From Chloroflexota bacterium (GTDB taxonomy: Bacteria; Chloroflexota; UBA11872; VXOZ01): a DNA stretch of 64,000 bases. The stretch is from the NCBI GenBank assembly GCA_963662335.2, contig CAXXVD010000003.1:64001-128000 (forward strand). The letters are read 5' to 3'. Made by a program: the position numbers and the translations under genes. Each line of letters begins with the position of its first letter. The stretch's first letter is position 1. The notes under the pieces are model-generated. The model searched no databases. It saw nothing but the letters and a program-made list of their open reading frames with translations, and was not told the origin of the DNA. Shown here one piece after another: positions 2,979 to 49,591 of the stretch.

Positions 2979-3075
2979 CGCGAGCGGGGGCGTATGGCCG
3001 CAAGCTTTCGCGCGTTGCCGGAATCAAGCGCTATTGAGATTTTGCAAGTATTGGCATTCAAGGAGGAGGATCGTC

Positions 3076-46415: not shown

Positions 46416-47000
46416 GTGTGGACTATTCCCCAGGCGCTTGGCGTCCTGACCCTGATCGCGTTCGCGGCCACGGCGCTTATCGCAATCCTCGGCGTGTGGG
46501 AACGCGCGCTGCCGGCGCGAGACGCCGCGCGCATGAGCGCGGCGGCGCGTTCGCGCACGTCGGTTCTGGCCTACGTCCGGGAGTCCGCGCTCTGGCTGGC
46601 GTGGCTCGCGGCGCTGGCCGCCACCGGCGGCAGCCTCTACCTCTCCGAAGTCCTCCACTATCCGCCTTGCGTGCTCTGCTGGTGGCAGCGGATTGCCATG
46701 TATCCCCTGGTGCTCGTGCTTGGCGCCGGCGCGCTGCGCAACGATCCCGCCATCCGCTGGTACGCGCTGCCGCTAGCGGCAGTGGGCGCGCTGATTGCCG
46801 GCTACCACACGCTGCTGCAACGGGTTCCCGCGCTCGATCAGGCGACGAGTTGCAGCGCGGAAGCGCCCTGCAACGTGATGTGGGTGCAGGCCTTTGGCTT
46901 CGTCTCGATACCGGTGATGGCGCTGGCGGCGTTTGTGCTGATTGGCGTATTGGCGCTCATTGCCCCGACGCGACCGGCGGTGCAGATGACTCGTAGGTAA
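46416..47000 (+). CDS. Disulfide bond formation protein B (DsbB/BdbC)
   Basis: GSLYLSE...YPPCVLCWWQRI.MYP, second Cys pair, FGFVSIP. Confidence 0.9.
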   Translation: MWTIPQALGVLTLIAFAATALIAILGVWERALPARDAARMSAAARSRTSVLAYVRESALWLAWLAALAATGGSLYLSEVLHYPPCVLCWWQRIAMYPLVLVLGAGALRNDPAIRWYALPLAAVGALIAGYHTLLQRVPALDQATSCSAEAPCNVMWVQAFGFVSIPVMALAAFVLIGVLALIAPTRPAVQMTRR

Positions 47001-47032
47001 GAGACTTGAACGCACTTTTCTCGCTCTAGCCG

Positions 47033-47887
47033 TTATCGCAAAGTCTCAGCACTATTCTTTAGATCTGTTACTCTTGCGTCGATGCTATCAAGTATCTCCG
47101 TTGGAATGCCGCTGTCTCTTTTGAGATACTTAGCTAAGAGTTCATGCTCATCGTACGACGCAAAGCAATCGACCTTGCCTTTGAGATGAGGGGAAAGGTG
47201 CTGAACTGAAGGGGGAACGCCCTTTGCAACAGAAAACTGATATACGTACTTTAGATTGTCTTTCAAGTATCCAACAACAGGCAGAAAGTCGGCATCGCCA
47301 CTGACAAGAATTGCTGCGTCGTAGTAAGGCATTTTCGCGATCATGTCTACAGCGATTCCAATGTCCACCCCCTTCTCACCCACCTGAACGCCTCTATAGA
47401 TGATGTCCTGCCCCTTCTGTTCGAGCCTGTGCACTCGCAGAGGATGAACTTGATACTGGCCTACATACCTAAACTCTAGGAAATCCGTCCCTCGCTGAAT
47501 CTCTTCGAAAGTCTTCTCCCGCAAGCGCTGGAAATAGTCCCGCTCTTGCGTGTACCACTCATTCGCAAGTTCAACAACTCGTTCTGGCGAAAGCCCGTTG
47601 ATTTCAGGATGACTGTGTACTATGCGTTGGGAAAGACGCCTTGCGTCTCGAGTCGATACCCAAGGAGAAATGCTCTCTGCGTAGTACCAGTAGACCCTAA
47701 TGAGCCGATAATTCAGCTTCGTAAGCGCTTCGAACTTCTCAATTACCCCGCCGTAGAACCCTCTCCAGTCAAAGTGGCGCTCTTCAAGCCGATACGGGCG
47801 TCTTTGCGGTGAAGAACTGAAAGTAAAGTCTCTAAGATTGCCGCGGAAATTCGCGCCATCCACGAAGATCACCGTTCTCAAAGACAT
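47033..47887 (-). CDS. NYN domain (LabA/DUF88, PIN-like) predicted ribonuclease
   Basis: IFVDGAN, EKGVD..IAVDM, LVSGDADF acidic residues intact; lower GC than flanks. Confidence 0.9.
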   Translation of the reverse strand: MSLRTVIFVDGANFRGNLRDFTFSSSPQRRPYRLEERHFDWRGFYGGVIEKFEALTKLNYRLIRVYWYYAESISPWVSTRDARRLSQRIVHSHPEINGLSPERVVELANEWYTQERDYFQRLREKTFEEIQRGTDFLEFRYVGQYQVHPLRVHRLEQKGQDIIYRGVQVGEKGVDIGIAVDMIAKMPYYDAAILVSGDADFLPVVGYLKDNLKYVYQFSVAKGVPPSVQHLSPHLKGKVDCFASYDEHELLAKYLKRDSGIPTEILDSIDARVTDLKNSAETLR

Positions 47888-47904
47888 AGAGCAGATTCCC
47901 GAAT

Positions 47905-47928
47905 AAAAAAGGGGGCCAAATGGCCCCC
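47905..47928 (-). terminator. Intrinsic terminator directly upstream of the NYN start codon
   Basis: Minus strand GGGGGCCA-TT-TGGCCCCC-TTTTTT, ending 17 nt before the ATG. Confidence 0.8.
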
Positions 47929-47972
47929 GCGTCCCAGTAGTATTGGCATGTGCGGCGTAATCACGACCGCAC
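47905..47972 (-). ncRNA. Candidate structured leader/small RNA of about 65 nt
   Basis: Bounded by promoter and terminator; hairpin GUGCGG-U-CGU-GAUU-ACG-CCGCAC; no ORF. Confidence 0.5.
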
Positions 47973-47976
47973 CCTT

Positions 47977-48006
47977 AGTATAGACTGTGGCTGCTACTCT
48001 CGTCAA
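47977..48006 (-). promoter_or_regulatory. Sigma70-type promoter
   Basis: Minus strand TTGACG (48006-48001), 18-bp spacer, TATACT (47982-47977). Confidence 0.75.
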
Positions 48007-48289
48007 GGTCTGATTCCTTGCCATACACCCTTTGCTTAGAAAAGGCTGCCAAGCCAAGTCTCACTGTTATCAGAGTCCAGATCGCTCACTTAGTTTTGAC
48101 GAGATTCGCCGGATGACTAGCGATTATATCGCCAAACAGAGACCTGGCCGTTCCAGCCGCATCCGCGTTTGTTCCCCGCGCGGGCATAGGGTATTATGAC
48201 CAATGGCGCGTCACGCCAGTGACGCCCGTATTCCGGTCTTCTCGCTAGAACCACAGCCTGGTTTAGCGTGCGTTGCAGGGGAGGCATCC

Positions 48290-49591
48290 ATGCCGGTTAC
48301 CGCCGTAGTTGGCGCCCAGTGGGGTGATGAGGGCAAGGGGCGCGTGGTCGACTACATGGCCGCGCAGGCCCACCTGGTGATTCGCTACCAGGGCGGGGAC
48401 AACGCGGGCCATACCGTCGTCAACCACTACGGCAAGTTCGCGCTCCACCTCTTCCCCTGCGGCATCTTCTACCCCCACGTGCGCAACGTGCTCGGCGCGG
48501 GCATGGCGATCAACCCGCAGTCGTTCCTGAACGAAATGAAGATGCTGAACGACGCCGGCGTAGAGACGCCCCCCAGCCGCGTGCGCATTTCCGAACGGGC
48601 GCAGGTGGTGATGCCGTACCACGTGCTGCTGGACGGCCTGGAAGAGGAAGCGCGCGGCAAGAACGCCCAGGGCACCACCAAGCGCGGCATCGGTCCCTGC
48701 TACACCGACAAGGCGGCGCGCATCGGGCTGCGCATGGGCGACCTGACCGACCCGGCGCACCTGCGCGCCTACCTGCGCCAGGTGGTGGACGTGAAGAACC
48801 GCCTCCTCACCGGCGTCTACGACCACGACCCGCTCTCCTACGACGCGCTGCTGGAGCAGGCGCTGGACTGGGGCGCGCAACTGGCGCCGTACGTCGAGAA
48901 TACGCATCCGCTGGTGCAGCAGGCCCTGCGCGAGGATAGAACCGTGCTGCTGGAAGGCCAGCTTGGCGCGCTGCGCGACGTGGATTGGGGCATCTATCCC
49001 TTTGTCACGTCGTCCTCGCCCATCACCGGCGGCAGCGCCACCGGCGCCGGGATGCCGCCGCACCGCATCAACCACATCATCGGCGTGGTCAAGGCCTACA
49101 CCACCGCCGTCGGCGAAGGCCCGGTGCCCACCGAGCTTGACGGGGAGATGGGCGAGACCCTGCGGGAGGTGGGCGAGGAATACGGCGCTACCACCGGACG
49201 CCCCCGCCGCTGCGGCTGGTTCGACGCCGTGGCCGTGCGCTACGCCGCCGAACTCTGCGGCTTTTCGTCGATTGCCGTAACCAAGATCGACGTGCTCGAC
49301 CAACTGCCCGCGCTCAAGGTCTGCGTGGCCTACGACGTGGACGGCACGCGCCACGAGACCGTGCCGGATACGCGCCTGATGGCCCGCGCCCGGCCAATCT
49401 ACGAGGAAATGCCCGGCTGGCAGGAGCCAACGACTGCGGCGCGCGCCTGGCACGACCTGCCGCCCAACGCCCAGGCCTACCTGGAACGCATTAGCGAATT
49501 GACCGGCGGCGTGCGGATAAGCATGGTGGGCGTCGGCCCGCACCGAGACGATACGCTGGTCGTAGACCGGCAGCAGTACGAGGTGGCGTAG
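48290..49591 (+). CDS. purA: Adenylosuccinate synthetase
   Basis: QWGDEGKG, GG.NAGHT, GTTKRGIGP.Y, GATTGRPRRCGW. Confidence 0.97.
   Translation: MPVTAVVGAQWGDEGKGRVVDYMAAQAHLVIRYQGGDNAGHTVVNHYGKFALHLFPCGIFYPHVRNVLGAGMAINPQSFLNEMKMLNDAGVETPPSRVRISERAQVVMPYHVLLDGLEEEARGKNAQGTTKRGIGPCYTDKAARIGLRMGDLTDPAHLRAYLRQVVDVKNRLLTGVYDHDPLSYDALLEQALDWGAQLAPYVENTHPLVQQALREDRTVLLEGQLGALRDVDWGIYPFVTSSSPITGGSATGAGMPPHRINHIIGVVKAYTTAVGEGPVPTELDGEMGETLREVGEEYGATTGRPRRCGWFDAVAVRYAAELCGFSSIAVTKIDVLDQLPALKVCVAYDVDGTRHETVPDTRLMARARPIYEEMPGWQEPTTAARAWHDLPPNAQAYLERISELTGGVRISMVGVGPHRDDTLVVDRQQYEVA

Follow-up and report, generated by a model that had tools for sequence, protein, structure and literature searches.

A conserved structured leader RNA precedes a LabA-like NYN gene in an accessory cassette of Chloroflexota: a candidate RNA–protein module

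A small low-GC islet in a Chloroflexota genome carries a gene for a protein of the NYN family, preceded on the minus strand by a promoter, a short structured RNA and a terminator. The question raised by this locus is whether the RNA is a dedicated partner of the protein, in the manner of an RNA antitoxin, or only the leader of its message. The locus lies in the window, the whole stretch of 64,000 nucleotides of DNA that was analysed.

The islet, 1.16 kb in size, was originally predicted to lie between dsbB and purA, and this is borne out by the GC profile and by the Pfam matches of its flanks. GC content is 0.455–0.53 across 46900–48199 versus 0.64–0.735 on both sides (200-nt windows), and the flanking ORFs encode DsbB (PF02600, E 9.7e-15) and adenylosuccinate synthetase (PF00709, E 1.4e-170). 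The upstream region of purA beside the islet is conserved. In same-genus genomes, the gap between dsbB and purA is ~93–110 nt, and homology to the window stops near 46967 and returns near 48160. The features of the islet are collected in Table 1; both the start and the end of the leader transcript were inferred from sequence.

Table 1. Position and basis of the features in and beside the islet (numbering of the window)
Feature	Position	Strand	Basis or detail
dsbB stop codon	46998-47000		Islet begins directly after it
Low-GC accessory islet	47001..48160	-	GC profile and same-genus comparison; between dsbB and the purA upstream region
Sigma-70-type promoter, TTGACG-18-TATACT	47977..48006	-	10/12 consensus matches
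-35 element, TTGACG	48006-48001	-
-10 element, TATACT	47982-47977	-	18-nt spacer from the -35
Predicted leader RNA, ~66 nt	47905..47970	-	From a start predicted ~7 nt past the -10 up to the last U of the tract
Match to covariance model R1	47903-47976	-	56.7 bits, E 4e-14
P1, 5'-terminal hairpin, core GCGG...CCGC	47950..47972	-	Folds and helix 1 pairing in 17 sequences; letters GUGCGGUCGUGAUUACGCCGCAC at 47972-47950
P2, weak in the window (CCA...UGG)	47934..47946	-	Folds and helix 2 pairing
P3, intrinsic terminator, 7 G-C pairs, 4-nt loop, U6	47905..47928	-	Terminator scan and helix 3 pairing
P3 stem-loop, GGGGGCC-AUUU-GGCCCCC	47928-47911	-
U6 tract of P3	47910-47905	-
LabA-like NYN protein, 284 aa	47033..47887	-	Pfam NYN, AlphaFold model and fold matches

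The promoter, the 5' hairpin and the GC-stem/U6 terminator 17 nt before the NYN ATG (47887) were all found as the original prediction had described them. The claim that the leader is free of ORFs held only in part, since a frame of 23 codons begins with an AUG at 47949 and ends at 47878. This frame has no SD and is unconserved, its AUG being absent in L027, L028, L029 and L079 and followed by an immediate stop in L032, and a leader peptide was rejected.

Taken by themselves, the promoter and terminator signals of the window show no excess over chance: the scan returned 2 promoter-like sites versus 1.1 ± 1.1 in shuffled sequences, and 1 terminator-like site versus 1.8 ± 1.4. Folding of a 106-nt piece of the leader region gave a z-score of -1.79, and that of a 77-nt transcript-sized piece a z-score of -3.21, with equally stable folds in 0/200 shuffles. 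It is because of its conservation across homologues that the leader exceeds chance.

This conservation was analysed upstream of the NYN gene in 63 loci, comprising 23 cassette-type and 40 dapA-linked loci. The cassette-type loci span 48–81% protein identity and GC contents of 0.38–0.60, and all 23 possess a TTGAC[ATG] -35, a TAnnnT -10 and a terminator hairpin at equivalent distances from the start codon. The -35 (22 TTGACA/T/G variants plus the TTGACG of the window) is situated at -145 to -100, the GC hairpin with its T-rich tail at -33 to -49, and the U-tract ends 17–30 nt before the start codon. A covariance model, R1, was built from 17 leaders (the window and 16 relatives). In the 67 sources searched, R1 matches solely upstream of this NYN family; the genome of the window holds a single match, the leader itself, and the matches in 98 genomes of the class are found in 5 NYN-bearing genomes and in one apparent relic.

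In the alignment of the 17 leaders, which was fitted to the model and is biased toward the proposed structure, 94% of the helix cells are paired compared with 41–56% in slid controls, two-sided changes occur in 9/17 base pairs, and the observed values were reached by 0/500 shuffles. The pairing reaches 91% in P1, with a compensatory change in 1/6 pairs (A-U in L035); in L047, P1 is built from different letters, as judged by eye and from its fold. P2, which reads CCCA...UGGG in most relatives, is 94% paired with two-sided changes in 3/4 pairs, and P3 is 97% paired with such changes in 5/7. Moreover, the 5' hairpin and the terminator were present in 10/10 tested leader folds, with z-scores from -2.7 to -5.6. 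The leader appears to be under purifying selection, its mean identity being 0.60 versus 0.40 at third codon positions and higher in 135/136 pairs, with unpaired positions also kept (ACAU after P1, UAU before P2 and an AAUA-type P3 loop). The leader sequence diverges in step with the NYN protein, and distant homologues retain the architecture and not the sequence. Alignment upstream of the homologues, as proposed with the original prediction, has thus revealed a leader that is conserved and covarying among them.

No conserved antiterminator was detected by truncated and constrained folding of the 17 leaders, in which the partners of the 5' arm of P3 are inconsistent, and the energy penalty for removing or blocking P3 is 15 kcal/mol for the window and 12–17 kcal/mol in 17/17 leaders. 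Termination would thus seem to be constitutive, like that of ToxIN. An alternative pairing between GCCAA of the linker and UUGGC of the terminator, suggested earlier, is present in the window and recurs only in L024 among the 16 relatives, where GCCAA pairs inside P2 and not with the terminator; it was rejected as a switch.

The protein downstream belongs to the NYN family (PF01936, LabA-like) by its profile, fold and acidic residues. The PF01936 match has an E value of 1.8e-12 and 48.4 bits versus a cut-off of 24.2, and the AlphaFold model (pLDDT 91.9) matches the structure 2qip (Z 14.4) and the NYN domain of MARF1 (Z 13.1). It thus resembles other LabA-like proteins (PF01936/COG1432) in fold and acidic active-site residues, although it has ~100 more residues than 2qip. 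The residues D10, N13, E171, D175, S196, D198 and D200 do not vary among 45 homologues, in keeping with intact catalytic aspartates, and the acidic ones probably sit in the NYN active site. The subfamily is narrow, with 25 cluster representatives (50% identity) at E ≤ 1e-30 among 1.84 billion, and 0 NCBIfam families match the protein. Furthermore, the short gap after the U-tract leaves the NYN gene without space for its own promoter, and its mRNA would therefore depend on read-through of the terminator.

The cassette appears to be an accessory, horizontally moving and self-contained single-gene unit. It is low in GC, and its orthologues occur in 4/17 genomes of the genus; they occupy two insertion sites, for which exact empty sites exist. 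Nonsense alleles are found in 4/23 cassette copies versus 0/40 dapA-linked copies. The module is chromosomal, its hosts are Chloroflexota and other lineages, all uncultured, and the NYN gene is common in sponge-associated and marine Dehalococcoidia. As originally predicted, there is no adjacent protein antitoxin gene: neither such a gene nor any other conserved neighbour was found among ORFs of at least 90 aa in 19 loci. Only the G004/G009 islet and its copies in metagenomes have a DUF2188 gene (82 aa) upstream. The neighbours are mostly housekeeping genes, with a DNA methylase or a 'Beta protein' beside 2/16 loci only. No relative was identified in IMG/VR viral contigs by exact peptide patterns, nor in INPHARED phages or PLSDB plasmids by tblastn at E 1e-5.

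The dapA-linked loci form a monophyletic sub-clade in which the NYN gene lies behind dapA (40/40 loci) and the invariant catalytic residues are retained. The consensus promoter is found in 0/40 and a terminator-like hairpin in 1/40 of these loci. R1 was not found upstream of NYN in any of the 40 loci searched, the sole match being one of 12.6 bits ~2 kb downstream in L062. In their leaders the promoter-like region is weaker and the SD is covered by a hairpin; RNAalifold gave no consensus structure for 12 of them, in an alignment that is probably poor. Since this clade keeps an apparently active NYN without the leader RNA, the protein can exist without it, which weakens the reading of the RNA as an obligate antitoxin.

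The layout of promoter, RNA, terminator and RNase was compared in the original prediction with that of ToxIN, CptIN, TenpIN and AbiF-type toxins. The layout itself stands, and membership of those families does not. Type III systems (toxIN, cptIN, tenpIN) share with the cassette a single promoter upstream of an RNA gene, then an intrinsic terminator and an endoribonuclease gene reached only by read-through, as well as the lack of a protein antitoxin and a small, mobile and patchy nature. The toxins of toxIN, cptIN and tenpIN have the ToxN/AbiQ endoribonuclease fold and, to our knowledge, the three accepted type III families share this one toxin fold, whereas the nuclease here is NYN/PIN-like. 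The RNA is a single-copy three-hairpin molecule instead of a tandem direct-repeat array: Tandem Repeats Finder returned 0 rows for 46900–48300, and a direct-repeat search gave scattered 10–17-nt two-copy matches only, none in the leader. Unlike type III systems, relatives of the cassette were not found on the phages or plasmids of INPHARED and PLSDB. The absence of tandem repeats, the different fold and the lack of an Rfam match rule out membership of toxIN, cptIN or tenpIN.

A search of Rfam 15, which had been suggested for the leader, placed it in no known RNA family. No family reached its gathering threshold in the window leader and the 16 related loci. The best scores were 19.1 bits for RF02502 over the window leader (threshold 50) and 18.9 bits for RF02866 in L032 (threshold 48), and a gathering scan of 15 loci returned only a PyrR site, located elsewhere. 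The abiF motif RF03085 was absent from the window leader and the 16 related loci, and this absence, together with the NYN protein, rules out membership of the abiF-motif systems.

The closest described layout is that of RCd22-abiF, in which, according to the portion of the report available, a SigA-type promoter drives an ncRNA of ~100 nt with a Rho-independent terminator, followed by a toxin gene without a promoter, yielding an abundant short transcript and a rare read-through transcript (bioRxiv 10.1101/2025.04.15.648962). This equals the layout inferred for the NYN cassette. As far as that text goes, RCd22-AbiF is prophage-borne and experimentally shown, with an Abi_2/HEPN toxin and two abiF motifs (RF03085) in its RNA, whereas the present system is chromosomal, predicted from its sequence, encodes an NYN protein and has no Rfam hit (bioRxiv 10.1101/2025.04.15.648962).

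Only weak partial matches were obtained with PADLOC-DB 2.0 (NYN, 8.8e-7 over 48 residues; HEC-09, 2.3e-6 over ~100 residues). HEC-09 is likewise a single-gene NYN candidate, considered in a defence context; it differs in an N-terminal HTH-like domain, and the weak match covers only those ~100 residues. In the available part of the sole study testing HEC-09, it gave no phage protection and no RNA partner is described (bioRxiv 10.1101/2024.01.29.577857). Similarly, in the accessible text of the literature found, including PMC5499597, no LabA-like protein with a dedicated leader RNA is reported, and the present layout is not described for the NYN enzyme family.

The reading preferred here, to which a probability of about 0.45 is assigned, is that the cassette is an RNA–protein module working like a type III toxin–antitoxin system or AbiF-RCd22. 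As judged from its sequence, the locus has the promoter–RNA–terminator–NYN architecture, including the dependence on read-through. A promoter of consensus strength would drive a dedicated structured RNA of ~66–80 nt, made of P1, a small P2 and the strong terminator P3, and the NYN mRNA would arise only by read-through, so that the short RNA is expected in large excess over the nuclease message. By analogy with the known systems, the short RNA would be the specific partner of its NYN protein, by which it would be bound and perhaps cut. It may restrain the expression and activity of NYN in cis, through attenuation and possibly through control that NYN exerts on its own leader, and also in trans, through sequestration; the nuclease would be released once transcription or the RNA is lost. 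Addiction, defence or a stress RNase are the candidate roles of such a cassette.

Several observations stand against the preferred reading. The 5' hairpin and the terminator should make the RNA stable, yet the antitoxin of a classical type III system has to be labile. The dapA-linked NYN genes lack the RNA, the neighbours are housekeeping genes, the PADLOC matches are weak, and no relative was found in the phages, plasmids and viral contigs searched. None of the 7 sequencing runs listed is recorded as RNA. Thus, of the original proposal that the RNA is an antitoxin or an autoregulatory ligand of NYN, the layout and a covarying leader remain, the GCCAA switch and membership of a known family have been lost, and an obligate antitoxin has become less likely.

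A purely cis-acting leader or attenuator is the main alternative, a tenable though somewhat doubtful explanation. The strong promoter and constitutive terminator would keep NYN low, the terminated RNA would have no function in trans and be only a by-product, and NYN would be an ordinary enzyme of RNA metabolism, possibly feeding back on its own leader by binding or cutting it. RNases E and III feed back on their own mRNAs. The layout and the conservation fit this explanation equally well, and the different leader of the dapA-linked clade suggests that low expression, and not the RNA product, is what must be kept; the housekeeping neighbours and the absence from the phages and plasmids searched point the same way. 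However, a weak promoter would be a cheaper route to low expression, yet TTGAC[ATG] is kept in 23/23 loci together with a maximal terminator. P1, P2 and several unpaired positions are conserved beyond the needs of termination, and a patchy, mobile distribution with nonsense alleles would be unusual for a housekeeping RNase.

It is improbable that the RNA is an independent trans-acting sRNA with other targets, or a cofactor or guide directing NYN to its substrates, with NYN merely co-transcribed. The predicted transcript does resemble a stand-alone sRNA gene in having its own promoter, 5' hairpin and terminator, but it has no existence apart from NYN, being present in single copy per genome and always 17–30 nt before the ORF, and its sequence diverges together with the protein. 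Least probable of all is an attenuator that senses a ligand or factor, be it a riboswitch or the binding site of an antiterminator protein of the host, and switches NYN on in some specific condition: a terminator directly before the ORF and conserved hairpins upstream of it would suit such a device, but there is no consistent antiterminator pairing, loss of the terminator is costly in all 17 leaders, distant homologues keep the architecture and not the sequence, unlike ligand pockets, no Rfam family matches, and the RNA travels only with the NYN gene.

Returning to the preferred reading of an RNA–protein module, its more specific form is advanced tentatively and with appreciable doubt. The cassette may represent a new RNA-antitoxin (type III-like) class with a LabA-like NYN toxin and a single-copy, unprocessed three-hairpin RNA, whose ends would be set by the promoter and the intrinsic terminator and not by toxin cleavage of repeats. 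The cassette, of 1.2–1.6 kb, would be spreading among uncultured Chloroflexota and other lineages, one of which may have domesticated NYN behind dapA and discarded the RNA.

We know of no bacterial NYN (LabA-like) nuclease with a known regulator, and of few with a known function. A conserved, covarying RNA whose only companion is one NYN subfamily provides a concrete hypothesis, testable in E. coli. If true, RNA-based toxin control would gain a new toxin fold and an RNA architecture free of repeats, a new RNA motif that Rfam lacks would be defined, and there would be a first functional lead for a NYN gene of sponge-associated and marine Dehalococcoidia. Even if the leader acts purely in cis as an attenuator, it would give a family of RNases a new autoregulatory leader.

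Every part of the layout put forward in the original prediction (islet, promoter, hairpin, terminator and NYN ORF) is present at the window locus (see table). The islet spans 1.16 kb with a GC content of about 0.46–0.53, against 0.64–0.73 in the surrounding DNA. Promoter and terminator scans of the window sequence alone performed no better than shuffles, and the 106-nt fold of the window leader alone is marginal (z −1.79); the decisive evidence for the leader feature is, on comparative sequence grounds, its conservation across homologues. The leader had been described as ORF-free, which is not strictly so: it contains a 23-codon AUG frame (47878–47949, minus strand), which opens just after P1, crosses the terminator and stops 7 nt into the NYN ORF. 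This frame lacks an SD and is not conserved among relatives. Through a 14-nt inverted repeat (window 47993–48006 and 48096–48109), TTGACGAGA also occurs a second time, on the plus strand, inside the islet and about 100 nt upstream of purA, with no good −10 seen at 16–19 nt from it. The cassette might supply or disturb the purA upstream region.

Features of the window locus, in-frame stops in cassette copies and the dapA-linked set of homologue loci
Feature	Position	Strand	Remark
DsbB-family gene	46416–47000	+	ORF bordering the islet
NYN ORF, 284 aa	47887–47033	−	17 nt downstream of the terminator
Terminator P3	47928–47905	−	canonical intrinsic; 7 G–C pairs, 4-nt loop, U6
Hairpin P2	CCA 47946–47944 / UGG 47936–47934	−	weak pairing in the short linker
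Hairpin P1	47972–47950	−	starts at about the expected transcription start
Promoter −10, TATACT	47982–47977	−	after the 18-nt spacer
Promoter −35, TTGACG	48006–48001	−	18-nt spacer to the −10
Adenylosuccinate synthetase, purA	from 48203	+	ORF bordering the islet, other side
In-frame stops	L024 codon 160; L029 codon 151; L047 codons 79 and 161; L035 codon 254		
dapA-linked loci	L036–L038, L040–L046, L048–L076, L087		40 loci

The ORF matches Pfam PF01936 (NYN; E 1.8e-12, above the curated cut-off), and its AlphaFold model (mean pLDDT 91.9) finds its sole strong fold matches in LabA-like 2qip (157 aligned residues, Z 14.4) and the NYN domain of MARF1 (Z 13.1). Residues D10, N13, E171, D175, S196, D198 and D200 are invariant across 45 NYN homologues, and the window protein belongs to the LabA-like NYN family. 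Its own branch of that family is compact: it comprises 244 database clusters at E ≤ 1e-3, the best 120 of which are 52–100% identical, and E ≤ 1e-30 is reached by only 25 cluster representatives (50% identity) among 1.84 billion.

Homologue loci were taken from species-representative genomes (55, mostly Dehalococcoidia/Chloroflexota MAGs) and from metagenomes (13), and inspection of the 200 nt preceding each start codon sorted them into two kinds, cassette-type and dapA-linked. The scan covered 63 loci: the window, L024–L076 and nine metagenome loci, leaving out L080 and L082 (upstream 200 nt identical to L079 and L081), L088 and L091 (upstream DNA shorter than 60 nt) and L077 and L078, where the gene is partial. 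A TTGAC[ATG] −35 at −145 to −100, with a TAnnnT −10 at 16–19 nt, is present in 23/23 cassette-type loci, and so is, at −33 to −49, a GC-rich hairpin followed by a T-rich tail. Relative to the window, protein identity in these loci is 48–81%; their GC contents run from 0.38 to 0.60, and the most distant (L083–L090) preserve the architecture in quite dissimilar sequence. The 5′ hairpin and terminator fold in all ten leaders tested (z −2.7 to −5.6).

Alignment of the 17 leaders sharing P1, P2 and P3 provided a covariance model, R1, of 81 positions and 17 pairs. When both strands of 67 sources (468 kb) were searched, the training leaders scored 43–89 bits and the cassette locus L083 22.9 bits. Other matches reached at most 18.6 bits and were mostly palindromic terminators read on the reverse strand; one reverse-strand match (L079) covers the whole model, and the dapA-linked L062 has a single match of 12.6 bits. 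The window's own 3.2-Mb genome contains exactly one match, the leader. Among 98 genomes of the class, matches were found in six: G000, G014, G009 and G004, which all carry an NYN orthologue; G055, where the match is the same sequence as the leader in cassette locus L034; and G011. This last match (29 bits, L107:1501–1570), the sole extra one in the genus, sits in the dsbB–purA 'empty' spacer where G000 and G014 hold the cassette, and shares the strand of the leaders in those two genomes. The element, a GGGGGUC-UGAUU-GGCCCCC hairpin with a U-run, shares about 26 of 33 letters with the window terminator and may be a relic that stayed behind when NYN and its promoter were lost, or else a native terminator.

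The leaders of cassette-type homologues proved to be conserved, with changes on both sides in 9 of the 17 pairs and 94% of cells paired in the 17-leader model-fitted alignment, whose fitting to the structure biases it toward that structure. None of 500 shuffles reached any of five covariation measures, and sliding the 3′ partners as a control lowered pairing to 41–56%. Independent single-sequence folds and the different stem sequences of cassette loci L035, L047, L084, L089 and L090 point in the same direction. Furthermore, the leader has a mean pairwise identity of 0.60 and the third codon positions of the gene beside it one of 0.40, with the leader ahead in 135 of 136 pairs; leader identity is 0.76 in paired columns and 0.48 in unpaired ones, where conserved letters include ACAU after P1, UAU before P2 and the AAUA-type P3 loop. 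A search of the leaders against Rfam 15 gave no matching family. R1 is, from this comparative evidence, a new RNA motif in a new variation of the promoter–RNA–terminator–RNase design.

Forbidding the terminator in folding costs 12–17 kcal/mol in 17/17 leaders. With transcripts of these leaders cut before the 3′ arm, no consistent antiterminator was found, the partners of the 5′ arm varying between sequences, and the GCCAA/UUGGC alternative pairing suggested for the window had to be abandoned: it is not conserved, and of the 16 relatives L024 alone has the GCCAA linker as well, there paired inside P2. Because of this cost and the lack of a conserved alternative pairing, termination looks constitutive or else protein-controlled. 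The NYN gene has no room for its own promoter and is therefore made by read-through only.

Orthologues (E ≤ 1e-100) occur in 4/17 genomes of the genus and 0/24 other relatives searched. The cassette lies between dsbB and purA in G000 and G014; this gap measures about 0.1 kb or less in thirteen same-genus genomes (about 93–110 nt in those read), about 480 nt in G010 and about 1.7 kb in G002. In G004 and G009 it occupies a second site, flanked by PhyH-family and GH32 genes; this site is empty in G005 and G007 (flanks 92–99% identical, joined with 1–3 nt between). These empty sites delimit a 1585-bp insert in G004 (L029:2381–3965), at which no target duplication was seen. The G004/G009 islet also holds an 82-aa DUF2188 gene (PF09954, E 4.7e-19; L029:2535–2780) upstream of the NYN promoter, apparently frameshifted in G009 and missing from the other cassette loci.

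Cassette neighbours are varied and mostly housekeeping genes, with a DNA methylase or 'Beta protein' in only 2/16 loci. No neighbouring ORF of at least 90 aa is common to 19 cassette loci, in agreement with the absence of an adjacent protein antitoxin gene noted at the window locus. The GC content of the NYN gene is 5–23 points below its flanks. In-frame stops interrupt 4/23 cassette copies (L024/G014, L029/G004, L035 and L047) versus 0/40 dapA-linked ones, counts to which no statistic was applied because related genomes lack independence. One variable beta-hairpin loop (residues ~150–161) holds three of the five stops, and the interrupted copies may be true pseudogenes or reflect MAG consensus/assembly errors. 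Just downstream of the degraded L047 copy, before a phosphoribosyltransferase gene, lies a PyrR binding site (RF00515, L047:3976–4088; 54.6 bits, gathering score 54) unrelated to the cassette. By its distribution, the cassette is accessory, mobile and dispensable.

The cassette combines a consensus-strength promoter, a conserved, structured and dedicated leader and a strong terminator without antiterminator with a read-through-dependent NYN gene, in a mobile, dispensable unit without a protein partner. The short leader RNA would accumulate in excess, act as a specific ligand, perhaps a substrate, of NYN, and keep NYN synthesis and activity low. We tentatively favour, with a probability of about 0.45, an RNA-controlled NYN module with the logic of type III toxin–antitoxin or AbiF–RCd22 systems. 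In the experimentally studied AbiF–RCd22 pair, a SigA promoter produces a ~100-nt RNA ended by a terminator, the toxin gene has no promoter, and RCd22 neutralises AbiF whether it acts in cis or in trans (bioRxiv 10.1101/2025.04.15.648962). Type III systems share the logic of an RNA-held RNase, but their repeat array is missing here, with no tandem or direct repeat units found in the leader region, and their toxins have the ToxN/AbiQ fold rather than the NYN fold. Likewise, the HEPN fold and abiF motif of AbiF systems are replaced by, or absent beside, an NYN fold. The module would work like both systems, yet is a member of neither. The PADLOC matches, to 'NYN' and to HEC-09, were all weak and partial; HEC-09 gave no protection in the study proposing it (bioRxiv 10.1101/2024.01.29.577857).

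The main rival, in which the leader acts in cis alone, as an attenuator or autoregulatory element of an ordinary RNase, is a serious if less probable possibility. It is favoured by the housekeeping neighbourhoods and by the dapA-linked loci, whereas the universal consensus promoter of cassette loci and a conservation reaching beyond the terminator speak against it. dapA is directly upstream of NYN in 40/40 non-cassette loci versus 0/22 cassette loci (in L067, asd–dapA–NYN precede convergent acyltransferase and cmk genes), and a consensus promoter is found in 0/40 and a terminator-like hairpin in 1/40. In a midpoint-rooted FastTree without outgroup they group as a single tight clade within the cassette-type branches, and we infer its polarity relative to those branches. 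Catalytic residues are kept, and the clade retains NYN without the R1 RNA; therefore, the nuclease can be kept without it. The dapA-linked NYN has the look of a copy that was domesticated and is inherited vertically. Its leader differs: the roughly 150 nt ahead of position 3001 or 2501 hold a conserved CCCAUAACU-like box and a CCUUG-N6-CAAGGAG hairpin over the SD; RNAalifold obtained no consensus from the MAFFT alignment of 12 of these leaders. Finally, it is very unlikely that the leader RNA is an independent sRNA or guide, or that the leader is a ligand-sensing attenuator.

The LabA-like group is listed as of unknown function in a PIN-superfamily survey (PMC5499597). The full-text literature searched, which covers few subscription journals, describes neither an RNA antitoxin nor a dedicated RNA motif for an NYN nuclease. 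We know of no regulator of the NYN nuclease family. The cassette with its conserved leader is a real finding, better founded than the first reading from sequence alone, and its antitoxin or defence role is a candidate one.
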